Assembly (NCBI GenBank): GCA_034439575.1 | Contig: JAWXAQ010000008.1 | Coordinates: forward strand, 192,001 to 256,000 | Source of the DNA: Leptospira sp. | Lineage (GTDB): Bacteria > Spirochaetota > Leptospiria > Leptospirales > Leptospiraceae | Direction of reading: 5' to 3' | DNA: 64,000 nucleotides | Part shown: positions 2,123 to 45,208 of the stretch, in pieces | Layout of the letters: every line of letters starts with the position of its first letter | Numbering within the stretch: position 1 is the first letter of the stretch | Position numbers and translations under genes: made by a program | Notes under the pieces: generated by a model | The model's input: only the letters and a program-made list of their open reading frames with translations | The model's database searches: none | Told to the model about the DNA's origin: nothing

Positions 2123-3172
2123 TTAAGGATCTTGCTTATCAAAAGCTTTTTGGAAAAAAAACGAAAATGATGACACTAATTTCGGAACTTCTAATAAAGT
2201 TTTTAAATTAAATCCAGTATCACCATGAGATATTAAAGTTGTTATACAAAGTTTACAATCAACACCATGTTCATTTAGTTTGTCATATAACTTAGATGAT
2301 TCGTTAGCTGGGACAACATCATCCTTTGTTCCATGAATTAGCAATATCGGGGTATTCAATTTATGGATATGATTCATTACCGATAAAGCTGACAGTAAAA
2401 TACGATTTTTTCCACCTTTACGTAAAATTGTATTCCAGTGTTTCATTCTAAATTCAGTATCATATTTTAATTTATTGAAAAAGTCCTTATCAGCTTTTTT
2501 CATTTTCGAATAATGGGGTTCAAGTAGATTGTCTTTGTATTTGAAATAATTATCCAAAATAGCTAGTTTTAATGCTTTGAATAAATTTTCATTTTTGCCT
2601 ATAGAAATAGGTAAAAAGTTGAGAAGTAATATCATTCTTCCGTACTCATCCATTTTTTGGTTAGAAAATAAATTTCCAATGATGTCTTCCACATTTCCAT
2701 AAGCGCCGATTGTACATATGGAATTGATTTTATTTGAAATATTATCATCACTGGCAGCAATAAGACTTAAAGATCCTGAAAACGATGGAGCGAAAATAGA
2801 AACTTTGCCAGATCGACTAAATTCTTTTTTGTTAGCGATGTACAGTATAGAGTTTTTAATATCGTCTACATTGCGAAGGGAAATTTTATAATCACAAATT
2901 TCATCATAATAAGGACTTATTACCGTATAACCAAGATTACAAAGACTTTTGTTAACAATTATAAATCTAGGATCACGATTACCTAATGGTGCAAGACCAT
3001 TGATCGTTACTATGGTACCTAGAGAATTTGTTTTTGGTGAATAATAATCTGCCCGAAGTGAGCGATTTTTGATCGGAATTTGAATTTCGCGAATTCCAAA
3101 TATTGAATCGTTCTTACTTTGAAGCCCGATTAAGAATTTTATGGATTTAATCCATGAGGTTACTGTATTCAT
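2123..3172 (-). CDS. alpha/beta hydrolase
   Basis: Nucleophile elbow APSFSG, PILLIHGTKDDVVP, C-terminal SHG. Confidence 0.75.
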   Translation of the reverse strand: MNTVTSWIKSIKFLIGLQSKNDSIFGIREIQIPIKNRSLRADYYSPKTNSLGTIVTINGLAPLGNRDPRFIIVNKSLCNLGYTVISPYYDEICDYKISLRNVDDIKNSILYIANKKEFSRSGKVSIFAPSFSGSLSLIAASDDNISNKINSICTIGAYGNVEDIIGNLFSNQKMDEYGRMILLLNFLPISIGKNENLFKALKLAILDNYFKYKDNLLEPHYSKMKKADKDFFNKLKYDTEFRMKHWNTILRKGGKNRILLSALSVMNHIHKLNTPILLIHGTKDDVVPANESSKLYDKLNEHGVDCKLCITTLISHGDTGFNLKTLLEVPKLVSSFSFFFQKAFDKQDP

Positions 3173-3706
3173 TTATATAATCAGTTTATTTGGAAAAAAA
3201 TTATCCTAAGCAGTTGATGTAGCATTCAAAGAATTAAATATGTTATGTGAGATCTGAGCTATCGGCCTACTTTTAAAATAATTTGTAAACTATCTTTTTA
3301 TCTCAAATATATGATAAAATTTTTAGTAATATTACAATTTGATTCGAATTGCCTTGAGTGGTTTATGAATGATAATGTAACTAAGTTTCAGAAAATCAAA
3401 ATTATATGTTATGAGAACAATAGGTGTTCATTTTAACAGACTAAAAAAAAATTAAAAATTTGCTTCTTATCAATTTGGCACTAATAGTAAGATTCAAGTA
3501 TTTAATAGATTAAAGTAAAAAAGTATAGCAAGGGATTCGGAGCTAGTGAACATAAAAATAAAGAGGTTATACAAAATTAAAGCTCAAAAATACTTAAGTC
3601 TTAAAAAACTACGTTGAAGCAATCTGAACGATATTAAAATTAAATTAAAATTTCTAAATTATTTTATATTGAATTTTATTATTTGGTTTCGTTGTGTTTT
3701 GTCCAT

Positions 3707-3840
3707 GCGCCAGCGATCGAAGCGAAAATCCTTTGCCTACCTAAAACATGCAAACGATTTATAAAACATGGCAAAGATTGTAGCGGAGAGCGCGGTAGTT
3801 TTGATAATTAAATGTCCAAAATGTATCCAATGCTAGGCGC
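3707..3840 (+). repeat. Family-B palindromic element, copy 1
   Basis: GCGCCAGCGATCGAAGCGAAAATCCTTTGC...GCAAAGATTGTAGCGGAGAGCG...ATCCAATGCTAGGCGC; homologous to 40168-40303 and 42367-42470. Confidence 0.8.
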
Positions 3841-4197: not shown

Positions 4198-5728
4198 TTG
4201 TATAAGAACAAACCTGTTTATCTTCAGTTAGAATTCCAAACATTGGTTTATTTCTTGCGTAGATTCACTAGAAAATCTTCGGTTTTATTAGCTATTATCT
4301 TTTGTTTCCAATTTTGCCAGCAGAGTTTTGGCCGAGAGGAATTGGATCCAAACATACCAATTGGTATGACCTTGCATTTGTTGCCTTTTTTATTACCAGT
4401 TCCGACCGAAAGCAATACTAAAGAATTTCATTATTTTTATGTTCCTAATAGTGTTTCGTATGGTGTCATCGCGGGTCTCAATGTAAATGTCACAACTCCT
4501 TTTGGAACTAATCGTAGTGCGCTCATGCCACATTTTTTACATTCTGGGAAAGATATTTCCAAAAATGGAGTCACACAGATTTCTGGAGAAACGAAAAATG
4601 ATTTTACATCAACTAACGCATATTTAATAACAGCAGAAAATCAATCGACAAAAACCTACCAAGTAACAATCACAAACGGTCTTTCTACATCGAAAGCTTT
4701 GACAAATTTCCAATTTGACACTCTAGTTACTCGTGGAGTATTCATTGGAACAACTTTCGTTATGAACGTTCCCTATGGATCAGATCTATCAAACCTATCT
4801 CAATAAAGACGTTTCTTCTCTTTCACCGATTGTGTCCCATCTCGGTCGATCGGTTCGGATCAACAATCAAAATCATGTGAATGATGTGTCAATGTATGAT
4901 TTTAGAAACCAATTGGAATTGGTGATCGAATCCTATGATGGAAATACTAGAACGTATTCCGTACGTGCAGGCACTTGGTGTGTTGATACGATAATAGGTG
5001 GAGCATATTCTGGCAAACCTTACCGGACTTATTTTCCTATGGGAAATGGATCGGGACAATATAATTTTTACCATTGGACATCTTCACGGTTTGTAGTGGG
5101 CGCTACATTGGCTTACGCCATATGGGGAACCACCCCAAAACCATCTGAAAAACTATCGGATATAGAAGTCGAAAGTGTAAAAAATATACTATTGGAATTG
5201 GAACAAGAAGAAAAAGATTCACAAAACAAATCAGAAATGTTACATGACCTGACTTTTCCTGGATGGGGACATTTATAAAGAATGGAACCAGCGTTTGGTT
5301 ATATTTATGGAGGATTATTTCTGGGTTCTATTGCCGGCATAACACAGTGAACGCTACATTAAAATAGTATGAATTCCGAATATAAAGACACAGTCACTCT
5401 AATGACTCAATCAGCTTTCCTATTAAATCCTACATTAGATAGAAATATAAGTTTAAATCATTTGGTGTTATCTACATATTTAGTAGATCAAAAGTTTGAT
5501 GAAAAAAGAAATGCCGAGCGGCAACAAATAAACGCGATCTCGTTTGTTACGGCGATTTATTTGATTCAAATCCTTCACCTTTATTTTTTTCCTGGTAAAG
5601 AAGAAGCCTTAGAAAAAATTACTAGTGAAGGGTATAACAGACTTAATTTCTCCTTCCAAAGTGAGACTTTACGTACAACTCGGGAATTGAATTCACAGGC
5701 CGATATGAAATACGTCTTGGTTTTTTAA
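4198..5728 (+). pseudogene. Decayed mosaic of surface (lipo)protein fragments: Ig/cadherin-like repeats, an Lcl/DUF1566-like piece and a PGWG membrane-protein piece
   Basis: Frame switch near 4795; repeats YLITAENQSTKTYQVTI and LVIESYDGNTRTYSVR; one frame from 4775 to 5728 broken by stops at 5276, 5348 and 5360. Confidence 0.7.
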
Positions 5729-17781: not shown

Positions 17782-18282
17782 TCAAACGTCGGGTATTATA
17801 TCTCCAATAGGTATCATTGGGATAGAATCAGGATCGACAGCTGGTGTCTCTTTTTCTGGTTTTTCGGATTTTACTCCATTTGCTTCGTCGTCTAAAGATC
17901 GTTTGATGGAACGAATTTTTGAGTCTGTTTCATAAAGACGCTCAATCACTCGTTTTAATAGTAAAAATAAAAATTCAGGACTTTCTTGGCTCATCTTGAC
18001 AAATGAATTTCTATTAATAATCCCTAGTTTTGCTGTATCCGAAACGGTAACAATGGATGCTGCCCTTGGACTATTATTTATAATTGCCATTTCGCCAAAA
18101 AATTCGCCCGGTAAAATGCTTCTAAGTTTGGAATGTTTGCCTTCGATATGTTTATAAATATCCAATTGTCCTTCAAAAAGAAAAAACATCGCTCCATTTG
18201 ACGGAACCCCTTCTTTAAAAAGAACTTCCCCCCTTTTGAGAGTCACCATTGAAAGTTTTGATAATGATTCTTTAAGTCCCAT
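17782..18282 (-). CDS. Stand-alone cyclic nucleotide-binding protein
   Basis: PBC motif GEFFGEMAIINNSPRAAS; no HTH. Confidence 0.88.
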   Translation of the reverse strand: MGLKESLSKLSMVTLKRGEVLFKEGVPSNGAMFFLFEGQLDIYKHIEGKHSKLRSILPGEFFGEMAIINNSPRAASIVTVSDTAKLGIINRNSFVKMSQESPEFLFLLLKRVIERLYETDSKIRSIKRSLDDEANGVKSEKPEKETPAVDPDSIPMIPIGDIIPDV

Positions 18283-18694
18283 CTACTAATTCTTTTAATT
18301 TTTGTTCTGCTTCGAGTAATCTTTCAACATAAGTTTGTAATAAAGCATAAACAAACATTGGATTGGTGGTGGCTATTTTGATTAAATTTTGTTTGTCTAA
18401 TATTCCGAGCTGAGCTCTATCAGATTCTATATAAACAGTCATTGATCTGGGATGTGCAGAAATAAGTGCAATTTCTCCAAAAAATTCGCCCGTTGTGAGT
18501 TTGCGGACTTCATGAAAATTGTTTTGATCAGGTGATCCCATTCCTACAGACAAGGTGCCATTTAAAATGAAATACATCTTTTCATTTGATGCCTCTCCCT
18601 CGCGCACTATGACTTCACCACGTTTATAAAGTTTTGTCGGTACAGTATTAACAAAATCGAATATATTGATCGTATTTTCTTTTTTTATCGACAT
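18272..18694 (-). CDS. Stand-alone cyclic nucleotide-binding protein
   Basis: GEFFGEIALISAHPRSMT; paralog of the neighbouring gene. Confidence 0.88.
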   Translation of the reverse strand: MSIKKENTINIFDFVNTVPTKLYKRGEVIVREGEASNEKMYFILNGTLSVGMGSPDQNNFHEVRKLTTGEFFGEIALISAHPRSMTVYIESDRAQLGILDKQNLIKIATTNPMFVYALLQTYVERLLEAEQKLKELVDGT

Positions 18695-20646
18695 TAGTTT
18701 CCGCGATATATATCAGATAGTTCGTTTATGTTTTTATCTTCTGCATATTTCAATGGTGACTTTCCATTGTTATCTTCTAACTTTGGATCTCCACCATTCA
18801 ACACAAAGATTCTTGCCACTTCTAACACCAAATCTTTTTTACCAGGATCAAATTGAATTGCTAGTTCGGAAAGAATAGTTTTACCAGATTTATCTTTGAG
18901 ATTCAGATTGGCTCTACGTTCCATTAGGAATAGTACTAGTTTCTTATATTGTTCAGCGATTGCAATTTCCTTTGATTGTAAAAATTTAATAACTGCCTTT
19001 CGCAGAACAGTCATTCCATTGTTATCAATCGAATCGACCTCTGCTCCTAAGTTTACAAGCACTTGAATCAGTTCATTATTGTTTCTATTGAAGGCTAAAT
19101 GAAGGGCAGATAATCCTCGTTTGTTTTTTGTATTTAGATTTAATCCTTTTGATAACAAAAGTTTGATGATTTCTTGAGTGAATTTTTGGTCTTTTTTGTC
19201 CAATTCTTGTTTGCAGACTATCATCACGAGAGTTTCATCTTCCGAATTTTTTTCATTGGCATCGGCACCAAATGACAATAAAAGTTTAACTGATTCTAAG
19301 TCTTTTCTTTCGATTGATTCTGCTAATAAAGATTTACCATTTTTTGAAATATGATTTGGGTTGGCTTTTCTGCTTAACAGATGTTTGGCGGCCAAAATTT
19401 GTTTTGATTCCAGAGCGAGAGCCAATGGAGTTTCAGAATTTTGAATCGTCAGTGTATCAATAGGAACATTTTTTTTAAGTAATTCTTCGATCGTTTGAGC
19501 ACTTCCCTTTTTCGCAGCCAAATGGATCATTTGATATCCACCTTCGGTGAGAATTTGAAGGGAAGCATCATTTTGAATCAGCACATTGGCAATAGCAAAT
19601 TTGTTTTTATCGATTGATTCTTCGAGAGGATACTTTTTTGTCGTTAAACGGTTGTTTAGATTTGATTTAAATTCTATAAGTAATTTGGTAAGTGCTATAT
19701 CATTCTTTTCGATAGCTATTTCCAATAAAGTTTTGTTTTGTTTGCCAACTAAATCTGGGCTTAATCCTTTTTGAAATAGAAGTTTTAGAATAGCTAAATT
19801 TTTCTTATTATAAGCAGAAAAACTCAAAGGCAAGTCATCCCCATCCAGAATATCCCATTTGGCTCCCCTGTTTAACAGAAGTTCGGTTCCGGCTTGAAAT
19901 GATTTATCAATAGTTAGTAATAGAGGAGAGACTGCTTTCGCATCTTTGGCATTTGGGTCCGCTCCTGCATCTAAAAGTGTCGTCATTAACTTTAAATTCT
20001 TAGTATCTATGCATACAAATAAGGGTGTACGTCCAGTTAATTCAGGAAGGTTGGGATTGGCACCGTTTTGCAATAGATAGGTGATTGAGTCCGTTTTTCC
20101 TTTTTCTACAGCAAGAAATAAAGGTGATTTTCTTGGATTATTTCGTAAATTTACATCTACTTTACTTTCTACAATAAGTTTTTGGACGCTTAAACTTGAT
20201 TTAAGTATCGCTAGGTGAAGAGGGGTATTTCCTTCTGCATCATAGGCATTTGGGTCCGCTCCTTTTTCTACAAGAACCTTAAATTGATTTGTTAGTTTAG
20301 ATGTTACTACATAATGTAATAACGTTTTTCCTTTTAAGTCACGTCGATTTAAATCGATACCAGCACTCAGCAGACTTTCAAATTGTTTTGTTTTGTTTTT
20401 TTCTGTTGCGATCATGATGAGTGATTTACCGTCAGCGTCAGTAACGGAAATATCACCACCGTCTTTAATCCCTTTGTCAAAATCCTTAGGTGAACCTTTC
20501 AAGAGAAGTTGCAACAAATCAGGAACCACTACTTCTGGTGTAACAGGAGTTTCAGTGATTGGTTGTTCGTTTTCTTGCGAGTAACTGTTGTTTGATAAGA
20601 ACAGCAAAGAAATTAAAAGTATTTGTATTAGAATTTGTTTTTTCAT
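18694..20646 (-). CDS. Large secreted ankyrin-repeat protein
   Basis: Signal peptide followed by many GxTPLH-type repeats. Confidence 0.92.
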   Translation of the reverse strand: MKKQILIQILLISLLFLSNNSYSQENEQPITETPVTPEVVVPDLLQLLLKGSPKDFDKGIKDGGDISVTDADGKSLIMIATEKNKTKQFESLLSAGIDLNRRDLKGKTLLHYVVTSKLTNQFKVLVEKGADPNAYDAEGNTPLHLAILKSSLSVQKLIVESKVDVNLRNNPRKSPLFLAVEKGKTDSITYLLQNGANPNLPELTGRTPLFVCIDTKNLKLMTTLLDAGADPNAKDAKAVSPLLLTIDKSFQAGTELLLNRGAKWDILDGDDLPLSFSAYNKKNLAILKLLFQKGLSPDLVGKQNKTLLEIAIEKNDIALTKLLIEFKSNLNNRLTTKKYPLEESIDKNKFAIANVLIQNDASLQILTEGGYQMIHLAAKKGSAQTIEELLKKNVPIDTLTIQNSETPLALALESKQILAAKHLLSRKANPNHISKNGKSLLAESIERKDLESVKLLLSFGADANEKNSEDETLVMIVCKQELDKKDQKFTQEIIKLLLSKGLNLNTKNKRGLSALHLAFNRNNNELIQVLVNLGAEVDSIDNNGMTVLRKAVIKFLQSKEIAIAEQYKKLVLFLMERRANLNLKDKSGKTILSELAIQFDPGKKDLVLEVARIFVLNGGDPKLEDNNGKSPLKYAEDKNINELSDIYRGN

Positions 20647-35890: not shown

Positions 35891-36855
35891 TGAAAACTTA
35901 TACATATATATTAATATTTCTATCTTTATCATTTCTGAATTTTTCTTTGGGGGCAGATACAAATAAATACAAACAAGCATATGAAATGGAATCTAAGAGC
36001 ACACTTTTTGCAATTCCTCTCTATGAACAATCAATACAATCATCAAACTCAAAATCCTTACAAAAGGCGGCTGTGACAAGATTATTTTATCTTTATAAAA
36101 AACATAACAAGGTCATTGAAGCCTTGTTACTTGGAACGCGTTATTCATCCATTGTTTCTTCGAAAGATAAATCCGGAATATGGAAATCTGTTTCAGAAAT
36201 TTATAAACCTTTAACTTATACACAACTTACGAATGCATACACTGTAGCCATTCGAACAAATTCAGAAAATTACCTTGAGTTAATCAATATCATAAGAGAG
36301 TCCAAGGAACCAAAATTATTTGAATTTGTTTTTATTATTCTATATAAACGAAAACAATTTGAGCTCCTGAACCAAATTTTTAACGAAGACCATTCTATTT
36401 CTAGTTCACCATTATACCAAGGAATCATCTCAATCAAGTTAAATGCTGAAAAAGGAAAAGAATATTTAAATTCCATTGGACATGAAATGGAAAAAGATGA
36501 CGCTACCTCTTCGGATTTGTTATATCTTATGGGTCAATACTATCGTGCCTTAGGTGACTTTGCCATGTCTGCTCGTTACTTTAGAATGAGTTCATCATAT
36601 CATTGGCAAGAAAGGGGTAAAATCGAATCGGCAAAATCTTTAGTTTTAGATGGAAATTTTGGGGAAGTTTGCCAAACATTTAATTTTTCATCCTCACCTA
36701 ATGAAGAAGTTTCACAAATATTTTATTTAATTTGTAACAAAAAAGATAAAACATTTTTACGTGAAATTAAACCCAGCATTAAAGCATTAGGTGCGAAAGA
36801 TGGTGGAGAATTTTTCCAGAAAGTAAGCATTGCCCTTGAAAAGTGGGAAGGGTGA
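35890..36855 (+). CDS. Secreted helical/TPR-like hypothetical protein
   Basis: Signal peptide; TPR-like LLYLMGQYYRALGDFAMSARYF. Confidence 0.7.
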   Translation: MKTYTYILIFLSLSFLNFSLGADTNKYKQAYEMESKSTLFAIPLYEQSIQSSNSKSLQKAAVTRLFYLYKKHNKVIEALLLGTRYSSIVSSKDKSGIWKSVSEIYKPLTYTQLTNAYTVAIRTNSENYLELINIIRESKEPKLFEFVFIILYKRKQFELLNQIFNEDHSISSSPLYQGIISIKLNAEKGKEYLNSIGHEMEKDDATSSDLLYLMGQYYRALGDFAMSARYFRMSSSYHWQERGKIESAKSLVLDGNFGEVCQTFNFSSSPNEEVSQIFYLICNKKDKTFLREIKPSIKALGAKDGGEFFQKVSIALEKWEG

Positions 36856-36861
36856 CAAAAT

Positions 36862-37314
36862 ATGAAATTATTTAAAATCTCATTAATCTATTTATTGTTT
36901 ATCGGATCCACTTTTTCCGAAACAAAACTATTATCTTTAGTCGAAGCGGATAGAGTTCTGACTTTTTCTGAGAATGTAACAGATGATTTGTTCCTATGTC
37001 AAATGGAACCAAAAAAGAAATTTGGAAAAAATCCAGCTATCAATACGGAATGTTTTTCCTTGAAGGAAGAATCTTTAAAGAATGTTTTGGCTACGATCCT
37101 ACAGGTAGAAAAATCCGAAGAATTTATGTTAGGTTTTTATTCTCCCGATGGAAAACAATTGTTTCCTTCTTGGGAAGAAAATACCCATTTATATAGTTTG
37201 GTTTCCTTTGTCGTACGTCCAAATTCCAATTTATTTGTACAAGCACTTAAAAAAGAAAATAAGGCCTACTATTTTTGGCGAACAAAAAGTGCAGATTGGA
37301 ATTTATTTAAATAA
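36862..37314 (+). CDS. Secreted hypothetical protein
   Basis: Signal peptide; operon spacing. Confidence 0.65.
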   Translation: MKLFKISLIYLLFIGSTFSETKLLSLVEADRVLTFSENVTDDLFLCQMEPKKKFGKNPAINTECFSLKEESLKNVLATILQVEKSEEFMLGFYSPDGKQLFPSWEENTHLYSLVSFVVRPNSNLFVQALKKENKAYYFWRTKSADWNLFK

Positions 37315-37355
37315 AAATATCGACGGAACCTTTGTTATTTTTATAGAATTGCCAA

Positions 37356-37784
37356 ATGCCCACTCTAACATTTAAAAAACCGAAAACGAATCCTATACAA
37401 ACGGATATTGATGTTACTAATTTTTTATCTTCCCACAAACATCCTTTGAAGGCAGTAATCGAAGAAATTCGCGATTTGATATTAAAAACTGATAAATCAA
37501 TTACTGAACATATTAAATGGAATGCGCCAAGCTTTTGTTATTTGGGTGACGATAGGATCACATTTCGATTGGATAAATCTGAGAATATTCAGCTTATTTT
37601 CCATACGGGTGCAAAAGGTAAGGATACCAAAACAAATCAGTATTTATTTGAAGATGAAACTAGATTGTTGGTTTGGTTGGCCGATAAAAGAGCCGTTGTT
37701 ACTTTTGTAAGTTTTGAAGATTATATGAAGAAAAAAACTAAATTCAAAAAAATAGTAAAGCGTTGGTTAGCTGAGACAATGTAG
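37356..37784 (+). CDS. DUF1801 domain protein
   Basis: ITEHIKWNAPSF, LIFHTGAK. Confidence 0.85.
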   Translation: MPTLTFKKPKTNPIQTDIDVTNFLSSHKHPLKAVIEEIRDLILKTDKSITEHIKWNAPSFCYLGDDRITFRLDKSENIQLIFHTGAKGKDTKTNQYLFEDETRLLVWLADKRAVVTFVSFEDYMKKKTKFKKIVKRWLAETM

Positions 37785-37787
37785 GAA

Positions 37788-38249
37788 TTGAGAATGAAAA
37801 AATTAAATTTAAATATCCATATAAATGCTGGCTTAGAAAAAGTTTGGAATACGATCATCGGAGATAAAACTTATAGAGAATGGTCTGCTTCATTTTCTGC
37901 TGGATCATATTTTAAAGGGGATTGGACTAAAGGTTCTAAAATTCTTTTTTTGGGTCCAGATCCTAACACAGGTGAAGAGGGAGGTATGTTGAGTGAGATA
38001 GCAGATAATATTTTGTATAAATATATTTCCATCAAACATAATGGAGTGATCCATAATAACATTGAAGATACAACAAGTGAAGAAGTTAAAAAATGGGCTC
38101 CGAGTTATGAGAATTATTCTTTTGCAGAAAAAGACGGCGGAACTTTATTCACCCTAGATATGGATGCTATGGATGAATATTATGATTATTTTTTAGAAGC
38201 TTGGCCAAAAGCATTAGAGAAAATAAAAGAAATCGCAGAAAGAGGATAA
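37788..38249 (+). CDS. SRPBCC/AHA1-like protein
   Basis: INAGLEKVWNTI, GDWTKGSKILF, WPKALEKIKEIAE. Confidence 0.85.
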   Translation: MRMKKLNLNIHINAGLEKVWNTIIGDKTYREWSASFSAGSYFKGDWTKGSKILFLGPDPNTGEEGGMLSEIADNILYKYISIKHNGVIHNNIEDTTSEEVKKWAPSYENYSFAEKDGGTLFTLDMDAMDEYYDYFLEAWPKALEKIKEIAERG

Positions 38250-38298
38250 AAGTTATCTGGATTTGAAATGTAAATTTATCTTAATGTAATGGATCATT

Positions 38299-39321
38299 TC
38301 ATTTGATCACTTCGATGTCTCTAACTTCTGGCTTGAGGAAGAAGAACTTGAGCGAAAACTTTTCTCCAAGTTTGAATTCATTTATGCCACAGGAAATAGA
38401 TTTAACATTTGTTTCAGTTCGACAAAGGGATACCTCATCTTTCAGTTCTATCCAATCAGAAGATTCGGTTCGCGATTCGGGTTTAAAGTAGATATTACTC
38501 TCCGTTAGTTGTTCTCGACTAGAATTTTGTGTCCGAAAGTAGGTAGGCAATGATGCCATATCATATCGTACATTGGGCTGATTCACTTCAAAGTGTAAAT
38601 GCGGGCCTTGTGAATAACCAGTATTTCCTGAATAACCAAGAAGTTGGCTTACCGAAATCTTATCTCCTAACTTCACCACTACGCCATTGAAATCTAGATG
38701 AACATAATTGCCAATTGTGCCATCATCATGAAGTATTGATACAAGATTTGCCTTCGATGCTAGATCTTGTCTTGTTCCACCTTCAGTATAACGATCTTCA
38801 ATGGCAACCACATAACCTTCTCTTGCTGCAAGTACCGGAGTTCTCATGGGAAGAGAAAAATCTAATGCATACGCCGACGAACCATGATGAGTAAAGTTAC
38901 CATTATATCCTTGTCCAATACGAAAACTTTTTCCGACTTCAAAGGGCAATTCATATATTACAGAATCATTATGCACAGCATTGACATCACCCAGTCTAGC
39001 TTTGTATGAATAAGAAAAATAACGATACGCGGACTTGTCTAATATCTTAAAAGAAACAAACGCTTGTTCCTCGGCTCCTCGAACAATCATAGAGTGAGGT
39101 AATTTTTCCGAAGATTCGTAATTTTTAATCTCTGCCAAAAATTGGATAGAGTTCTTTGACCAAGGTCTTCCGTCGAGATTACGAACTCTAAATTCCTTAC
39201 CATCATCCGTCGCAATTGAAATAAGACAAATCGCCTTTGACCTACAATCCTCTTTTCGCGTTTCTGCAAATAAAGCTGTAGTCAGACAAATTAAGAATAA
39301 TATAAGAAAATTCTGTTTCAT
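38299..39321 (-). CDS. Secreted M23 family metallopeptidase
   Basis: HHGSSAYALD, GYSGNTGYSQGPHLHFEV; signal peptide; RBS GGAG. Confidence 0.9.
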   Translation of the reverse strand: MKQNFLILFLICLTTALFAETRKEDCRSKAICLISIATDDGKEFRVRNLDGRPWSKNSIQFLAEIKNYESSEKLPHSMIVRGAEEQAFVSFKILDKSAYRYFSYSYKARLGDVNAVHNDSVIYELPFEVGKSFRIGQGYNGNFTHHGSSAYALDFSLPMRTPVLAAREGYVVAIEDRYTEGGTRQDLASKANLVSILHDDGTIGNYVHLDFNGVVVKLGDKISVSQLLGYSGNTGYSQGPHLHFEVNQPNVRYDMASLPTYFRTQNSSREQLTESNIYFKPESRTESSDWIELKDEVSLCRTETNVKSISCGINEFKLGEKFSLKFFFLKPEVRDIEVIK

Positions 39322-39405
39322 GGCTTTTGTCTCCTTGGTCTAAATAAGTTATCTTATTCTATTCAATCGACAAAAAGTGAAATTTATTGAATGATTAGTG
39401 CAGAG

Positions 39406-39525
39406 GCAAACCTTGTTCCCATCTCGGGGCTGTCTCACCTCCGTGTTCGAATGCCCCCGCTTCGCCGTCCTGGCTTCGCTACCGATGGAAACAAGGTTTG
39501 CTAGTCCGGGGAAAGATCGAATAAC
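39406..39525 (+). repeat. Family-A 96-bp palindromic element, copy A1 (39406-39501) with GAAAGATCGAATA tail
   Basis: Terminal IR GCAAACCTTGTTCCCATC...GATGGAAACAAGGTTTGC. Confidence 0.9.
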
Positions 39526-39576
39526 AACATCTATATGTCGGTAAAAAAGTTTAGACATTTTGAATTGGGTAAGTAA

Positions 39577-39987
<411 letters not shown>

Positions 39988-39990
39988 TGT

Positions 39991-40145
39991 GCAAACCTTG
40001 TTCCCATCTCGGGGCTGTCGATTGCAAACCTCGTTCCCATCTCCCTTCCCTCTCACCTCCGTGCTCGAAGGAAGGACTACGACATCCATGTCTCCGTTAC
40101 CGATGGAAACAAGGTTTGCTTGGCCGGGGAGAAAGATCGAATAAC
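39991..40145 (+). repeat. Family-A elements: truncated copy (39991-40019) plus full copy A2 (40024-40119) and tail
   Basis: First 29 nt identical to A1, then restarts with GCAAACCTCGTTCCCATC...GATGGAAACAAGGTTTGC. Confidence 0.9.
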
Positions 40146-40167
40146 TATATCTTTACTATTAGCTAGG

Positions 40168-40303
40168 GCACCTCGGATGTGTTATATGGATCTACATTTA
40201 GTTCGATGACCCGATCCCGCTCTCCGCTTCAATCTTTCGCATAACTTTATAAAAGTTGGATTTGTTCACAAAGCGAAAGGATTTACGCTGTGATCGGTGG
40301 TGC
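40168..40303 (-). repeat. Family-B palindromic element, copy 2
   Basis: Reverse complement GCACCACCGATCACAGCGTAAATCCTTTCGC...GCGAAAGATTGAAGCGGAGAGCG...ATCCGAGGTGC. Confidence 0.8.
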
Positions 40304-40307
40304 AGTG

Positions 40308-40403
40308 GCAAACTTTGTTCCCATCTCCCTTCCCTCTCACCTCCGTGTTCGAAGGAAGGACTACGACATCCATGTCTCCGTTACCGATGGAAACAAGGTT
40401 TGC
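40308..40403 (+). repeat. Family-A element, copy A3
   Basis: Nearly identical to A2 (40024-40119). Confidence 0.9.
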
Positions 40404-41176
40404 AGAATATAATAAATGATTTAGCAACAGAATTAAAAGGACTAAATGTGTAGATTCTGAAAAGTTCTGCAAAAATTAGTTTATTAGAAAGGCAGATTAA
40501 GGATAGCAGTGCTCGTGATATTGGAATCATCATCCTAGGAACGGAACGTCTAAATCAGCATTCCGATTATGGTGAAAAAGTGATTGTTGTTTCTGATAAA
40601 AAAGTAAATCTACCGGCTGGGCATTTGGATTCCAATTTAGGGAAGTATGTCTATGTCCAAGACGGAGGCAATACTTGTCAGTCCTATACGCTCTTGGGTC
40701 AGATGGTACTAGAGGGAGTTAAATTTCGAGACAATATAGATGCAGGAAGAAAACTTATACACGAATTGACGAGACTGCAATACCAAATGGGAGAAACGGG
40801 AAATATGTCAACGAATACTATCAATGCATACAATAAAAGCCTTTCTGATTTTGGACCGAAGGCGACTAACATCATGGATAAGGAAAGTATCAAAACGACA
40901 GAAGATAAGCGTAATGCGATCAAAGAACAACTGCAAAAAGGCAAGATTGTGAATTCGGGAATGTTTTTGGATGCATCGCCTGCAGAACCAAAATATGATA
41001 AAGATGGTAAGAAATTAGAGCCTAACAAAGGTCATAGAGTAAATATTGTAGGGTTTGATGATGTGAAAGGAGAATGGATCGTAAACGATTCGAATAAAGA
41101 AGGAGAACTCACACGCTATCCGTATGGCGATTATGAGCTTATGAATCGGTGGTCTACTGTCTTGGAGAAAAAGTAA
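40404..41176 (+). pseudogene. 5'-truncated gene ending in a papain-fold (C39-like) cysteine protease domain; orphan toxin-like C-terminus
   Basis: QDGGNTC...GHRVNIVGFD...WIVNDS Cys-His-Asp pattern; frame continues upstream of GTG 40580 with one stop (40451) up to element A3. Confidence 0.65.
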
Positions 41177-41971
41177 ATGATAAAAATAATTCTTTTGCTG
41201 TTAATGTCATTATCAATTTTTGCTGATGAAAAAAAAGAACTATCAGATTTAGTAAATAAGATAGAGAAATACAATGAAGCATTCATAAGTGGCCCAATGA
41301 TAATAAGCGAGAGCGATGAAGTCGTGCGATCGGTAAACTATTACATAAAGGAAGGAGATTTTAAGGATTTAATAAAGCTTAAGGAGAGGTCTGAAATAAT
41401 CGAAAAATGGGGTGATCGGCGGCGATGGTTCGTGAGCAAATGGCAGGGCAAAGAACCAGCGATCTACGTGTCTGCTGATTATGTTCCTGCATTTTATAAT
41501 AATGCCATTCAAAAAAATCAAAAACCAACTACCGACTTAAAGGATCATTTTGATTTTTACTTCAAAAATTATTGCGAATTTGACGGCAGTATTGACACAC
41601 GTTATGCGCGAATTAAAAAGATGAGACTGACCTATTACGATGCGCCATATACAGCAGTTAACAATATGATGAATTTCAAAGTCGTAAGTAAATTTAAAAA
41701 AATTGCAAGCTATGATATCGACCTCAAAAATGATGATAAGGTCATCAATGCGATGCAATCTTTTTATCCAATCAAACCGACTACTTTATTTGGTAATATT
41801 TTTGCCATTCAATTGAAAGTGTTAGAAGTCTATCCTGGAGAAAAGAATATGCCCCTGTGCACTTCCGATTATTATATGGGACGCAAAGGTTTAGGTAGTT
41901 ACGAACAAATCTTAGGTGAGATTGATGAACTTCCTGAGTTGAAAGGGAAGAGGAATCCATATTGGAAATAG
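41177..41971 (+). CDS. Secreted protein, putative immunity/partner; C-terminal motif like NADase-type glycan-binding domain proteins
   Basis: Starts directly after TAA (TAAATG); signal peptide; LKVLEVYPGEK...LCTSD. Confidence 0.65.
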   Translation: MIKIILLLLMSLSIFADEKKELSDLVNKIEKYNEAFISGPMIISESDEVVRSVNYYIKEGDFKDLIKLKERSEIIEKWGDRRRWFVSKWQGKEPAIYVSADYVPAFYNNAIQKNQKPTTDLKDHFDFYFKNYCEFDGSIDTRYARIKKMRLTYYDAPYTAVNNMMNFKVVSKFKKIASYDIDLKNDDKVINAMQSFYPIKPTTLFGNIFAIQLKVLEVYPGEKNMPLCTSDYYMGRKGLGSYEQILGEIDELPELKGKRNPYWK

Positions 41972-42350
41972 CTGAGCCTCGCAAAAACTACAATCGTGAA
42001 CACTTTGTTCGTTCAGATAGAATTTTTCGCGAGATATGAAATCCTTCTCCAGAAGCAGATACTCATCTGCAAAACTTAGATTAATATTTAATTAAGCAGC
42101 TCACAAGTGTAAGTGAGATAAAGTTCACAGATAACAGGGCGAGAGACAAATTTATAATCTATTTGCAAGTGTTTAACGCAATAAGATAAAACGCCGCCAG
42201 TGATAAATCCGCAACGACATTACGAGCGAGGATAAAAGCAAATTAATGGTTTGACAAGGTGAGTGAGCAATACGAATCAAATATTAGTAAAACATAAAGT
42301 TATAAATAATTTAATCTACTAGCGATTCGTGTAGAAGAAAAGAACGAGTA

Positions 42351-42470
42351 GGGAACAAGGTTGCTCGCACCAGCGATAGCAGCGGAAATCCTTTGCGAAG
42401 CAAAGATTGGAGCGTATAGCGCAGTCGTTTTTCACGATTAAGTCTCTACCAACTAACATATCCAATGTGC
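42351..42470 (+). repeat. Family-A terminal remnant (42351-42364) plus family-B copy 3 (42367-42470)
   Basis: GGGAACAAGGTTGC then GCACCAGCGATAGCAGCGGAAATCCTTTGC-GAA-GCAAAGATTGGAGCGTATAGCG...ATCCAATGTGC. Confidence 0.8.
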
Positions 42471-42494
42471 CCACCTCGCTCTAACCAATCCGCC

Positions 42495-42613
42495 TATTCG
42501 ATCTTTCTTCGGTTGACCAAACTTTGTTTCCATCGGAAGCGTAGCCAAGGATGGCGGAGCGGGGGCATTCGAACACGGATGTGAGAGAGCCCCGAGATGG
42601 GAACGAAGTTTGG
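42495..42613 (-). repeat. Family-A element, copy A4 (42517-42613) with tail
   Basis: Reverse complement closely matches A1, including the GAAAGATCGAATA tail. Confidence 0.9.
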
Positions 42614-42752
42614 TGGGCAAGGGAAGGATATTCGCCTCCCCTTCACTCTGCCATCCTGGCTTCGTTCGCGTAGGCTCGTCGTCGCCTTTTTTGACATCCT
42701 GTCAAAACTTCTCCCTATAGGTCGAAGTCAGGCTCCTCAATTCGAATCCTTC
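42611..42752 (-). repeat. tRNA-Tyr 3'-end-like structured element
   Basis: Minus strand GAAGGATTCGAAT...CGAATATCCTTCCCTTGCCCACCA copies the T-stem and acceptor end of the upstream tRNA-Tyr. Confidence 0.65.
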
Positions 42753-42799
42753 TAGTCTTTGTTAGTTGGAAAGTTTTTTGTGGTTAAGAAGAAATGGTG

Positions 42800-42882
<83 letters not shown>

Positions 42883-42893
42883 GGGAGAAAAAA

Positions 42894-42968
42894 TGGAGCC
42901 GCCTGAGGGATTTGAACCTCCGACCGGCTGTTTACAAAACAGCTGCTCTACCACTGAGCTAAGGCGGC
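42894..42968 (-). tRNA. tRNA-Thr(TGT)
   Basis: GCCGCCT/AGGCGGC acceptor, GCTGT-TTTGTAA-ACAGC anticodon arm, TTCAAAT T-loop, encoded CCA. Confidence 0.96.
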
Positions 42969-43053
42969 GTGCTTTTCCACTTTTGTTTGTAATGGTCTGA
43001 GGTCAAATAAAAATTCACTTTGAGTAGAGAGAGGCCCCTTCCACTGTGACCTT

Positions 43054-43443
43054 GTGGCGTTATTTTTAGTAAATGGGTTAATGACTCTCTCTATTCTTTG
43101 TTTTTATTCAGGTTATTATTTCCGTGTTAAAAATAATTCTCTGCACCGAAGGGTAAATACTCTTGGAATCATTTTTAATCTATCTGCGGCTATCTTTCTG
43201 ATTACCGTAAAATATGCGTTTGGTGGAGTTGAGGCTTTTTCTATATTCCCTTCTTTTGATCGAATCTACATTGATATCCATAGGTTATTTGCACTCATCT
43301 CGCTCGTATTAATGCTAGGAATGGCCTATACGGGTTATACAAAGAAAAAGAGGATTCATTTGAAATTGCATTTTGTTTTTTTGCCACTTTATACAATTGT
43401 GTATATCTCCGGTCTATTTTTATTTCAAACATACCCAAACTAA
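43054..43443 (+). CDS. Small 4-TM membrane protein (DUF420-like)
   Basis: Four hydrophobic segments with His residues (LHRR, IHR, IHLKLH). Confidence 0.65.
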   Translation: MALFLVNGLMTLSILCFYSGYYFRVKNNSLHRRVNTLGIIFNLSAAIFLITVKYAFGGVEAFSIFPSFDRIYIDIHRLFALISLVLMLGMAYTGYTKKKRIHLKLHFVFLPLYTIVYISGLFLFQTYPN

Positions 43444-43452
43444 GGAATCGTT

Positions 43453-44265
43453 ATGAGCGTTATTGAAGAAGCAAAAAAGTTCGCAAAAAATATTCGCATA
43501 CAAGTTATCAAAATGGTAACAGCGGCTAACTCTGGACATCCGGGTGGACCACTTGGACTTGCCGATATTTATGCGGCTCTCTATACAAAAATATTAAAAC
43601 ATGATCCAAAGAACCCAGATTGGGAAGGTCGCGATCGCTTGATTTTATCAAATGGACACGTCTGTGCGGTGCGCTATGCTGCGATGGGACTATCTGGTTA
43701 TTTTCCTGTAGAAGATCTTTTGACATTTCGTAACATAAATTCCTATTTGCAAGGTCATCCTTCAACGCGCTATATGAAAGGCATAGAATCTAGTTCTGGA
43801 TCACTTGGCCAAGGTCTATCTGTTTCCGTAGGACTTGCGTTAGGTGCAAGATTAAAAAACCAAACGCACAAAATTTATACATGTATATCAGATGGTGAAT
43901 GTGGCGAAGGTATGACTTGGGAAGCGGCACAATCTGCAGTTCATTTTAAAGTAGATAATTTAATAGCATTTATGGATAGAAACTTCATTCAAATAGATGG
44001 AAACACAGAAGAAGTGATGAAACTTGAACCTCTTGATCAAAAGTTTAAAATTTTTGGCTGGAATGTGATCAACGCTGACGGACATAATATGGAAGAAATT
44101 TTTTCAGCATTTGAAAAAGCTTCACAACATACAGGAAGCCCTACTTTGATTGTGTTTAAGACAGTTCTTGGTAAAGGTGTGTCATATATGGAAAATAATC
44201 CAAAATGGCATGGAACACCACCAAACAAAGAACAGGAAGCCTTAGCACTCGCAGAATTATCTTAA
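43453..44265 (+). CDS. tktA: Transketolase, N-terminal (ThDP-binding) subunit
   Basis: [35 protein letters not shown]. Confidence 0.93.
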
Positions 44266-44314
44266 ATTAGAATTCTTCGATTGACATTCAAAATAGTTTT
44301 TAAAATATTCTTGC

Positions 44315-45208
44315 ATGGCATTTGGATCGTATCCCAACTTTTCATCGGAAGACATAACTAGATTATTATATGATTGGGAAATTGCACCACCAGAGAAGAA
44401 GCGATTCTTATTAAAACTTATCGCTTCACGTATCCCTTGGCAATTATCGATTGAACAAGCTACCGAAGAAGTAAAAGATCCTTTGTTACGTGTGATGGCA
44501 AGGAACGTTTCACCTGAAATTTTTCGCCATCGCATTCGCCATAGTTTTTTTAAACTTACCTTGCGCGGAAATTCAGGACATTACAAAGATTTAGAAGAGT
44601 CTGTTGTTCAATTATCAAGCATTGGTTTTCCTGATCAAAAATATTCTGAGATTAAAAAAGAGTTAGATCGTTTAGCACTGCGTGTCTCTGAATTGTTTGA
44701 TGAACATGAAGGCCATCTTTCCGAAGAAATGAAGGTTCAAATATTATGCCAAGTCCTTTACCAAGAAGAAGGTTTTGTCGGCAACTTACAAAACTATAAC
44801 GATCCTTCAAATTCGTATCTATACCATGTATTAAAAAGTAGGCTAGGCATTCCGATTTCACTTTCCGTAGTGTATTTGTTAGTTGCTCAAAGATTGGGCT
44901 TACCATTGTACGGAACAAATTTGCCATTACACTTTTTATTGCAATACGAATCAGACACATACTTCACTTATATAGATCCCTTTCATGGCGGAGTGTTGTT
45001 GGATAGGTTCACTTGTGAAAAATTTTTGGAAGCGAATGGGTATCCCATTTCTCCTAAATATTTTACAAAGGCATCCACACTTTCTATGATCAAAAGAATG
45101 TGCCGTAATTTAATCCATATTTACCGAGAGAAGTCTTCCAAAGAATTGGAAGCCCAAATCAGTGAACAACTATCTATCTTAGAGAGTCGATCCACGCACG
45201 CCGAGTAA
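44315..45208 (+). CDS. SirB1/transglutaminase-like domain protein
   Basis: YNDPSNSYLYHVL..RLGIPISLS, NLPLHFLL, YIDPFHGG. Confidence 0.85.
   Translation: MAFGSYPNFSSEDITRLLYDWEIAPPEKKRFLLKLIASRIPWQLSIEQATEEVKDPLLRVMARNVSPEIFRHRIRHSFFKLTLRGNSGHYKDLEESVVQLSSIGFPDQKYSEIKKELDRLALRVSELFDEHEGHLSEEMKVQILCQVLYQEEGFVGNLQNYNDPSNSYLYHVLKSRLGIPISLSVVYLLVAQRLGLPLYGTNLPLHFLLQYESDTYFTYIDPFHGGVLLDRFTCEKFLEANGYPISPKYFTKASTLSMIKRMCRNLIHIYREKSSKELEAQISEQLSILESRSTHAE

Follow-up and report, generated by a model that had tools for sequence, protein, structure and literature searches.

Bacterial genomes harbor several described classes of short structured repeats, with which the elements reported here can be compared. 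REP/REPIN-RAYT systems are made of ~20–40 nt palindromes arranged as inverted doublets, and the RAYT gene is usually flanked by repeats. BIMEs and REP clusters of enterobacteria and BOX elements of pneumococci are multi-copy and intergenic, consist of short structured modules in fixed orders and alternating orientations, often lie just past stop codons, and include subfamilies and chimeric copies; the present repeats resemble them in all these respects. Integron attC sites and CALIN arrays, including those of Treponema, are alike in being imperfect palindromes of ~60–140 nt with AAC...GTT ends (full outer-box consensus RYYYAAC/GTTRRRY) and with structure conserved above sequence, and in forming co-oriented arrays with small accessory or toxin genes, into one of which a tyrosine recombinase gene reads. 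MITEs (Correia, ERIC) share size, terminal inverted repeats, lineage-specific amplification and patchy distribution, and the accessible text of a census describes Leptospirales as especially rich in MITEs (PMC11602168). The Flavo-1 motif (Rfam RF01705) was described in Weinberg et al. (2010; PMC2864571), and has been assigned no function since then in the accessible parts of three sources (PMC2864571; PMC9723704; 10.1101/2023.03.29.534852).

The window considered here, i.e., the whole stretch of 64,000 nucleotides, comes from a Leptospira sp. genome (G000, 4.1 Mb). Next to tRNA-Tyr it carries two repeat families, A and B. Element A measures 96 nt; its small hairpins meet in a junction that an 18-bp terminal stem closes, and a constant 35-nt tail follows it. 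B is made of the tail and a Flavo-1 motif. The balance of the evidence tips modestly towards a BIME/MITE-like mosaic of two non-autonomous structured repeat families within a hypervariable accessory-gene islet beside tRNA-Tyr. The features are the following, in window positions:

37315–42613, no strand: lineage-specific insert of ~5.3 kb, relative to the ancestral order in relatives
39406–39535, plus: A1 (39406–39501, 96 nt, subfamily 1; model score 136.6 bits) and its 35-nt tail
39607–39987, plus: clan AA aspartic protease gene, 126 aa (TIGR03698, 72.3 bits)
39991–40019, plus: 29-nt 5′ fragment of a subfamily-1 A, not a full copy
40024–40155, plus: A2 (40024–40119, subfamily 2; 149.7 bits) and tail (40120–40155)
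40166–40305, minus: left Flavo-1 element, core of the B of the preliminary description (Rfam match 40209–40305, 50.4 bits)
40308–40403, plus: A3, 97% identical to A2
40496–41176, plus: cargo gene 1, 5′-truncated remnant with a weak Peptidase_C39_2-like match (mechanical ORF 40580–41176)
41177–41971, plus: cargo gene 2, 264 aa, hydrophobic N-terminus, no family match
42151–42299, no strand: non-coding module, recurring inverted beside an A copy on contig C11 (72% to C11:43004–43154)
42345–42362, minus: 18-nt fragment of an A 5′ arm (89% complementary), fused to the 5′ end of the right Flavo-1
42365–42472, plus: right Flavo-1 element (Rfam match 42365–42430, 44.3 bits; outer-helix partner 42460–42472)
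42485–42613, minus: A4 (42517–42613, subfamily 1; 123 bits) and its tail, reversed, at 42485–42516
42613–42798, minus: unit downstream of tRNA-Tyr, kept across the genus and present as a tandem duplicate in some relatives
42799–42968, minus: tRNA-Tyr (42799–42881) and tRNA-Thr (42894–42968)

The preliminary description had placed A2, tail, B and A3 in this order at 40024–40403, exactly as found, with B reaching 40307 and the 3′ partner of the left Flavo-1 outer helix at 40166–40179. For the right cluster it gave A4, tail, B and the start of an A; the order holds, and the terminal piece is the 18-nt fragment at 42345–42362 instead of 14 nt from 42351. The opposite orientation of the two clusters around ~1.95 kb of cargo is borne out by an enclosed segment of 1941 nt (40404–42344). 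A3 joins the left Flavo-1 in the same manner as the 18-nt fragment joins the right one. The outer left copy, A1, lies left of the range described and had been missed; it is 85 nt upstream of an M23 peptidase gene on the opposite strand. A1 is the closest relative of A4 (65-nt arms 91% complementary, 89% identity), while over 45 nt the arms of A3 and A2 reach 84 and 82% complementarity with A4. As A1 is also furthest to the left, the outermost inverted pair is A1/A4. Contig C7 again has the 29-nt fragment and a full A2 together as one unit (39995–40145 vs. C7:101992–102139, 89.5%). ORFs of at least 40 aa overlapping A or B copies all lie on another strand or frame and look spurious. The one real gene in the ORF list of the repeat region is that of the aspartic protease, which sits between the A1 tail and the A fragment, overlaps no A copy, and is patchy in relatives (DNA of 81% identity occurs twice in G015 and also in G005). 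The repeats are non-coding and present in many copies, and the window holds no gene for a mobilizing enzyme, in agreement with the earlier remark that no recombinase was in view. The repeat observation is confirmed, and its interpretation is partly supported.

Genome-wide, 26 full A copies are found on nine contigs. They are clustered and mostly co-oriented, with runs of five on C11 and five on C35, comprise subfamilies and chimeric copies, and are accompanied by truncated fragments and tandem arrays; arrays reach contig ends on C11 and C28, and also on C17. A tail is present in 25 of the 26 copies, and the sole tail-less one is A3, which adjoins the truncated cargo gene. Within the genus, 15 of 41 genomes have matches to A (E ≤ 0.001), and at E ≤ 1e-5 they are present in 12 of 114 genomes of the family, all within one of 14 genera; A is genus-specific and patchy within the genus, with G034, G004, G039 and G016 among the relatives rich in it. 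An Rfam search of 37000–45000 at E ≤ 1 left A unmatched and returned only tRNAs, Flavo-1 and one chance match. The elements are larger than REP (96 nt, 18-bp stem, multi-hairpin core), their clusters are mostly co-oriented instead of forming REPIN doublets, and, unlike BIMEs, they gather in accessory-gene islets and by tRNA genes and are not spread through operons.

The A helices are kept by compensatory changes. In an alignment of 38 distinct copies, including those of eight relatives, 87.7% of cells are paired vs. 74.9 ± 0.7 in shuffles (reached in 0 of 500), and 22 of 27 pairs have changes on both sides vs. 10.2 ± 1.7; slid controls of the pairing gave 30–48%. Helix 2 occurs as several different complementary sequences, and in one G043 copy the architecture is retained with an entirely different outer stem. 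The 18-nt arms are 94% complementary, begin with GCAAAC at the 5′ end and finish with GTTTGC at the 3′ end in the alignment, and form a stem unbroken except for C.A mismatches, and without an unpaired spacer in the center or a protruding base. Short GCAAAC...GTTTGC hairpins show no enrichment (5 found vs. ~8 expected). Conserved structure with compensatory change would fit a functional RNA too.

Both B elements exceed the RF01705 gathering score of 42 bits (50.4 and 44.3 bits). A covariance-model search of the genome gave 32 Flavo-1 matches, 23 of them above that score. Compared with the Rfam family, Flavo-1 is here a 32-copy repeat, is coupled to a second repeat family, and has an extra outer helix 3′ of the Rfam model; this helix covaries (GCACC/GGTGC, GCGCC/GGCGC, GCGAC/GTCGC, GCAAC/GTTGC, GCGTC/GACGC, GCGCA/TGCGC). 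A sigma-54 promoter had been considered for the GGCAC...GTTA motif and was discarded, as this is the 3′ outer-helix strand of Flavo-1 read on the other strand. A Flavo-1 is found no more than 300 nt away from 12 of the 26 A copies, with a recurrent spacing of 87–91 nt, vs. ~0.16 expected (our own arithmetic, random placement in 4.1 Mb), so that the A–B adjacency is non-random genome-wide, and the co-location pattern is far beyond chance. The recurrent unit on one strand is Flavo-1, tail, A, with fixed order and strand, and the pairing of Flavo-1 with A is also seen in relatives (L049, L051, L052).

The fixed order and strand and the strong covariation in A and extended Flavo-1 raise the question of a modular structured RNA, either a small RNA or a 5′/3′ untranslated element controlling or stabilizing nearby transcripts, for which DNA shuffling would be incidental. 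Wobble pairs are asymmetric (58 C.A/A.C cells vs. 22 G.T/T.G cells), although mostly from two inherited columns, and on the wobble-favored strand A stands in several cases 45–130 nt upstream of co-oriented genes, such as the M23 peptidase gene of the window and an Rpn-like gene in both this genome and G049. Flavo-1 is listed among unannotated transcribed regions of Leptospira in the accessible portion of a preprint (10.1101/2023.03.29.534852). In Flavobacterium, however, the part available of a transcriptome study places Flavo-1 matches sense or antisense to transcripts and many outside them (PMC9723704); moreover, the orientation of A relative to neighboring genes is inconsistent over the 26 copies, and the A fragments and tandem arrays look like DNA events. 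The sequencing runs listed as containing this DNA include no RNA run, and one labeled RNA-Seq (X14) is probably DNA. An RNA role as the primary explanation is regarded as unlikely, though it is the strongest of the alternatives.

The mosaic reading draws on the surroundings of tRNA-Tyr. Homologs of ORF260 and/or ORF150 of the window stand directly beside the tRNA-Tyr unit in 5 of 11 relatives' loci, and the order ORF260, ORF150, tRNA-Tyr unit is read as ancestral. Relative to it, the ~5.3-kb insert holds a DUF1801 gene, an AHSA1/SRPBCC-like gene, the M23 peptidase gene and the whole repeat/cargo cluster. Conserved synteny resumes at 42614, at the outer base of A4; for 4 of the 18 relatives the synteny breakpoint coincides exactly with the A4 outer end, and for all 18 it is no more than 190 nt away. 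A degenerate copy of the tRNA-Tyr 3′ end, kept across the genus, closes the conserved unit at 42613–42645, on the tRNA-proximal side, and similar degenerate copies of tRNA 3′ ends are found near A clusters downstream of tRNA-Leu (C22) and tRNA-His (G043). As in tRNA-linked islands, whose borders are direct repeats of a tRNA 3′ end, variable DNA starts right after the degenerate copy; in contrast to them, the islet contains no integrase and the tRNA-like repeat is genus-conserved whatever the content. At a DNA identity to the relatives of only ~74%, filled and empty sites are not alignable base by base, and such a comparison gave nothing, as the intergenic DNA of the relatives does not align.

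The tRNA-Tyr interval is not syntenic across relatives, and the cargo is found in 3 of 18 genomes of the genus, at other loci. Cargo gene 1 lacks ~108 codons compared with its 332-aa homolog in G005, and an in-frame stop (40451–40453) lies between A3 and its region of homology. It had been described as cut exactly at A3; the truncation is real, and the exactness is only approximate, with detectable homology starting at 40496. Cargo homology to G005 stops short of the repeats, by 93 nt on the side of A3 and by 373 nt on that of the right-hand A fragment. No other place in the genome has the missing 5′ part, and the A3 junction is thus a deletion or a partial copy; an inversion as the cause of the truncation was rejected on the same ground. 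None of six proteins had a PADLOC match, namely those of cargo gene 1 (as the full-length homolog of G005) and cargo gene 2, the aspartic protease, one PIN protein, the C11 recombinase and the Rpn-like protein. The A3–cargo (run X10) and cargo–A4–tRNA (run X11) junctions are the same in contigs of two other habitats; these contain no alternative junctions and no sign of ongoing rearrangement, uncovered parts of runs X5, X11 and X14 being left out of account.

A clusters share modules with one another. A PIN module is common to those on C11 and C7 (85% over 690 nt), the cargo recurs between those on C8 and C33 (73% over 500 nt), and non-coding modules also recur. Genes inside A clusters are of accessory types: three PIN genes and genes for an Xer-like recombinase, an Rpn/YhgA-like nuclease and an OmdA-family protein.

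The best reading of the locus is a hotspot of recombination and accretion, and not a demonstrated self-contained transposon for this cargo. Copies would gather where small accessory-gene modules meet, in many cases shortly after a tRNA gene. An enzyme that recognizes structure or site and is provided in trans may cut or recombine at A termini, or host recombination may act between copies, and neighboring modules would be duplicated, truncated, inverted and swapped. The mirror image around the 1.9-kb cargo would represent one Flavo-1-tail-A unit per side in opposite orientation, and the left junction, with tail-less A3 next to a gene without its 5′ part, a breakpoint exactly at an A terminus. 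Of the two proposals in the preliminary description, a repeat-associated hotspot that swaps cargo fits better than a capture unit, with the reservation that the habitat contigs gave no hint of current rearrangement. Its expectation that breakpoints fall at repeats is upheld by the synteny break at the outer end of A4 and fails for the ends of cargo and PIN module homology; the homology of the C11 and C7 PIN modules does not end at A. Module homology boundaries that are not at A ends count against the mosaic and hotspot interpretation, and so do the unchanged junctions of the habitat contigs and the failure to find a target-site duplication or an element with the same 18-nt ends around a gene.

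The same boundaries speak against an integron-like cassette system, in which A would be an attC-like folded single-strand site acted on by the C11 recombinase and the window cluster would be CALIN-like. Five PF00589 matches are present in the genome, all outside the window. On C11, the gene of a 305-aa Xer/XerA-like tyrosine recombinase ends 2 nt before an A copy and heads five co-oriented A copies, 0.5–1.7 kb apart, that carry PIN genes. It reads towards this array as in Treponema integrons, and A, at 96 nt, is within the 63–132 bp range given for Treponema attC sites in the accessible part of the same report (PMC3607928). The imperfect palindrome with AAC and GTT at its ends and the structure kept while sequence changes between species agree with an attC-like site, as do A starts 0–3 nt past the stops of co-oriented genes (C11 recombinase, 645-aa ORF on C33, 379-aa ORF on C30); the aspartic protease likewise stops 3 nt before the A fragment. 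Pairing is slightly better on the strand that is complementary to these genes (91.5 vs. 87.7% of cells), where A2 has a folding z of −6.2 vs. −2.8 on the other. On the other side, A has the AAC/GTT triplets but does not match the full outer-box consensus, and its stem has no spacer and no extrahelical base. A is tailed (25 of 26), and A4 is inverted in the window. The recombinase scores 162.2 bits with TIGR02249 (cut-off 265), has archaeal XerA proteins as best matches, and lacks the IntI insertion (17 residues vs. 57 in IntI4, 2a3v, with ~40 skipped). Its homologs (51–59% identity) are carried by 4 of the 14 other genomes with A and by 13 of the 26 that lack A, i.e., recombinase and A are not associated, and no repeat arrays lie beside the homologs of G005, G007 and G035, where the A model gave only weak matches. 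An integron-like system is rated rather improbable. A variant, in which an Xer/XerA-type recombinase independent of IntI would use A arrays and clusters lacking an integrase, the one by tRNA-Tyr included, to store and shuffle small accessory and toxin modules with Flavo-1 as companion module, is a little more doubtful still.

The preferred mosaic of non-autonomous repeats differs also from a classical MITE or transposon end. A has 18-bp terminal inverted repeats, is below 300 bp, non-coding and multi-copy, and the truncated gene that meets A3 exactly at its terminus recalls the adjacent deletions made by IS. A could then be mobilized by the product of the only PF04754 gene (Rpn/YhgA-like, “Transposase_31”) of the genome, with the cargo as a composite-transposon passenger. 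This gene lies on C35 between two direct A copies, begins ~45 nt after the first, and is followed by two genes, Flavo-1, tail and A. Among 41 genomes PF04754 recurs only in G049, which has strong A copies as well; its gene has a degenerate A just upstream (17.6 bits, E 0.007), and the two proteins are 73% identical, but this may reflect no more than a close relationship of the two genomes. Of the 14 other genomes bearing A, 12 lack PF04754, and neither the Xer-like recombinase nor the Rpn/YhgA-like gene tracks A across species. Rpn proteins are recombination-promoting nucleases and defense toxins and, to our knowledge, not proven transposases.

MITE copies are each flanked by a target-site duplication; no direct repeat of this kind is common to the 26 pairs of A flanks, the 3′ end taken (A or A plus tail) being uncertain, and no parent IS was found. 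The 5′ flanks are heterogeneous and the other flank, the tail, is constant, and the helices are kept by compensatory change across species. A genome-wide search for the 18-nt arms with up to three mismatches gave eight extra matches, none paired around a gene. Among transposase profiles the search covered Y1_Tnp, Transposase_31 and DDE_Tnp_1, and the last of these has no match in the genome. Small contigs have no obvious transposase, judging by the N-terminal sequence of their longest ORFs only. A retro-element origin of the 3′-terminal A fragments was dismissed, since the genome has no reverse transcriptase match. No two transposase-coding IS surround the cargo, and the composite-transposon capture unit proposed earlier is not borne out: no IS with the same ends was found and, within the limits just given, no target-site duplication. 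Mobilization by a RAYT/HUH enzyme, also proposed, is not supported, with zero matches to PF01797 (Y1_Tnp, RAYT/IS200) in this 99.98% complete genome; in a control search the profile was present in 6 of 14 reference genomes. A transposon end is the least probable of the explanations considered.

Full-text literature searches turned up no account of an A-like element in Leptospira, and the supplementary tables on MITEs (PMC11602168) and integrons (PMC4889954) may list it. A constitutes a new genus-restricted family of structure-conserving repeats that fits no standard class cleanly, with no RAYT, no duplication found and no IntI. Flavo-1 gains a concrete genomic behavior, being multi-copy, extended by a helix, coupled to a second repeat and located at the borders of variable modules, which makes its function testable as RNA or as DNA site. 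If the cassette reading were true, Flavo-1 would be a companion module of a recombination machinery and not a free-standing small RNA. For annotation, tRNA-proximal islets in these spirochaetes are flagged as sites of accessory-gene turnover.

Two families of structured, non-autonomous repeats beside tRNA-Tyr (42799-42881) are best read as forming a mosaic at a hotspot of accessory genes close to the tRNA, in which the termini of element A would act as breakpoints. Re-examination of the window sequence bore out the repeat positions of the preliminary description and their mirror-image order, A2-tail-B-A3 on the left and fragment-B-tail-A4 on the right, around a segment of 1941 nt holding two cargo genes. 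The A features are as follows.

39406-39501, + strand: A1, full copy, beyond the range of the preliminary description
39991-40019: 29-nt A 5' fragment
40024-40119, + strand: A2, full copy
40308-40403, + strand: A3, full copy
42345-42362, - strand: 18-nt fragment of the A 5' arm
42517-42613, - strand: A4, full copy

The closest inverted pair in the window is A1/A4, of one subfamily, with 65-nt arms that are 91% complementary.

Element A is a 96-nt unit whose terminal 18 nt at either end are 94% complementary. BLAST, together with a covariance model derived from the A copies themselves, found 26 full-length copies on nine contigs of the 4.1-Mb genome. These are clustered, mostly in one orientation within a cluster, with five each on C11 and C35 and more on C30, C22, C7, and C33. 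Every copy except A3 (25 of the 26) is followed by a 35-nt tail. In the inner helices, compensatory blocks distinguish two subfamilies, and chimeric copies are present. Among 38 distinct copies (eight relatives' copies among them), 87.7% of helix cells are paired vs. 74.9 +/- 0.7 in shuffles (reached by 0/500), and 22 of 27 helix pairs have changes on both sides vs. 10.2 +/- 1.7, figures biased upward by an alignment fitted to the model and by changes shared among kin. Slid controls gave 30-48% pairing. Helix 2 occurs with several unrelated sequences, complementarity being kept, and one copy in the relative G043 keeps the architecture even though its outer stem is completely different. Pairing is slightly better on the complementary strand (91.5% vs. 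87.7% of cells), where the folding z-score of A2 is -6.2 vs. -2.8; as two inherited columns supply most of the difference, this is only a hint. Matches to A were found in 15 of 41 genomes of the genus (E<=0.001) and in none of 73 family genomes belonging to 13 other genera (E<=1e-5). A is confined to this genus, and only this genome, among those searched, has a large, high-scoring set.

Both B segments score above the Rfam gathering score for Flavo-1 (RF01705), described in the cited passages as a computationally inferred motif without assigned role (PMC2864571; PMC9723704; 10.1101/2023.03.29.534852). The passage on a Flavobacterium transcriptome places Flavo-1 hits sense or antisense to transcripts, or outside them (PMC9723704). 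Genome-wide, 23 of the 32 matches pass the cut-off. Reading all 32 in sense disclosed an extra outer helix, in which the 5' start of the motif pairs 20-35 nt past the 3' end of the Rfam model, 5' GCNNC with GNNGC, in at least six covarying combinations (e.g., 42365-42472, 40166-40305). The block called 'mid' in the preliminary description is therefore the 3' end of the extended Flavo-1 on the opposite strand. A short variant without the central hairpin occurs at C35:36680-36730 and in contigs of sequencing run X10, and a further match in the window (3697-3801, +, 50.4 bits) has no A nearby.

The adjacency of A and B proved non-random: 12 of the 26 A copies have Flavo-1 at a distance of up to 300 nt, and 9 of the 32 Flavo-1 copies have an A in that range, where random placement would by our own arithmetic yield about 0.16 such neighbours. 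The recurrent spacing is 87-91 nt, occupied by the tail, in the order Flavo-1, tail, A on the Flavo-1 sense strand. In relatives the pairing is present at 3 of 6 strong A copies inspected. Two copies have A flipped relative to the tail, and therefore both orientations occur at one position. On C22 (L018, 2997-3560) the 3' part of Flavo-1, tail, and A form a tandem array with a period of 213 nt, about 300 nt downstream of tRNA-Cys and tRNA-Leu, with a degenerate tRNA-Leu 3'-end copy between.

The tRNA-Tyr interval is non-syntenic, the cargo pair occurring in 3 of 18 same-genus relatives and at other loci. To the right of A4, DNA is conserved in all 18 (~74% identity), the match beginning exactly at 42614 in four and within 190 nt in the others. 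The tRNA-Tyr 3' end recurs in degenerate form at 42613-42645, closing a genus-conserved ~185-nt unit (to 42798) downstream of tRNA-Tyr, tandemly duplicated in some relatives (compared loci L003, L004, L010, L011). A clusters downstream of tRNA-Leu (C22) and tRNA-His (G043) likewise have degenerate tRNA 3'-end copies nearby. Homologues of ORF260 and/or ORF150 (36073-37314) stand directly left of the unit in 5 of 11 relatives' loci, and another gene takes their place in three; this gene order makes 37315-42613 a 5.3-kb lineage-specific insert at a variable spot. The A3-cargo junction is present in a groundwater-run contig and the cargo-A4-tRNA junction in a wastewater-run contig, and contigs of these runs showed no alternative junction at the locus.

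Part of the ~185-nt unit (CCGCCATCCTGGCT...) is similar to hairpin 3 of A copies in subfamily 1. In the relative G005, three tandem ~200-nt units (L057, G005:C1:1499000-1511000, 4334-4925) are situated between tRNA-Leu(tag) and the full-length cargo genes; each holds a GCAAACAC...GTGTTTGC hairpin and opens with GACCCATAGGGAGC, as do the units downstream of tRNA-Tyr in the window and tRNA-Leu on C22. Homologues of the M23 peptidase gene at 38299-39321 (-) lie 62-69 kb from the relatives' tRNA-Tyr locus, on the opposite strand among the matches listed; they may be either paralogues or orthologues of a gene that has moved to the window locus.

Cargo gene 1 matched a C39-like peptidase family only weakly, and a family search gave no match for gene 2. 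In G005 the pair is downstream of tRNA-Leu, with a full-length gene 1 (332 aa) and Flavo-1 immediately after gene 2. The window gene 1 is about 108 codons shorter, so the truncation noticed earlier stands; it had been placed exactly at A3, but homology to G005 begins 93 nt past that copy, and the proposed discrete capture transposon is not borne out. The missing 5' part was not found elsewhere in the genome. A diverged, likewise truncated gene 1 paralogue adjoins another A on C33. Also patchy in relatives is the Asp protease gene located between A1 and the 29-nt fragment; in G005, ~0.9 kb separates it from a C11 recombinase homologue.

Mobilisation by a RAYT enzyme, also suggested earlier, is unsupported, since the genome search gave no Y1/RAYT match; DDE_Tnp_1 and RVT_1 likewise had none. 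Among five tyrosine recombinases, one Xer/XerA-like protein (305 aa) is encoded by a gene (L013, G000:C11:38000-47218, 2692-3609) whose end is separated by 2 nt from the first A copy in the C11 array. The boldest reading, an integron-like system run by a Xer-type recombinase, draws on this adjacency and is improbable: the C11 enzyme is without the integron-integrase insertion, and its homologues, found in 4 of 14 other A-bearing genomes vs. 13 of 26 genomes without A, do not track A across the genus. Past the recombinase, L013 has five co-oriented A copies, PIN-domain genes, and two 296-nt non-coding units in tandem; the contig terminates in 88 nt that recur unchanged at the ends of C10 and C24.

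On C35, the start of the sole Rpn/YhgA-like gene of the genome (PF04754, Transposase_31) closely follows an A copy, and two direct A copies flank the gene (L014, G000:C35:29000-40000, 4676-5629) together with two further genes and Flavo-1. PF04754 occurs in only one other of the 41 genomes, G049, which also has strong A copies; its gene (L060, G049:C89, 1133-2041) is 73% identical, with a degenerate A just upstream. Twelve other A-bearing genomes are without it. The C11 recombinase and the C35 Rpn-like gene may simply be cargo of A hotspots.

Homologues of the C11 recombinase adjoin a 16S rRNA gene in G005 (L038, 14900-17340) and a 23S rRNA gene in the relative G035 (L040, ~17900-18700), and in G049 an A copy lies ~1 kb from a 23S rRNA 3' end (L050, 1-1374), which points to a possible connection of these elements with stable-RNA genes.
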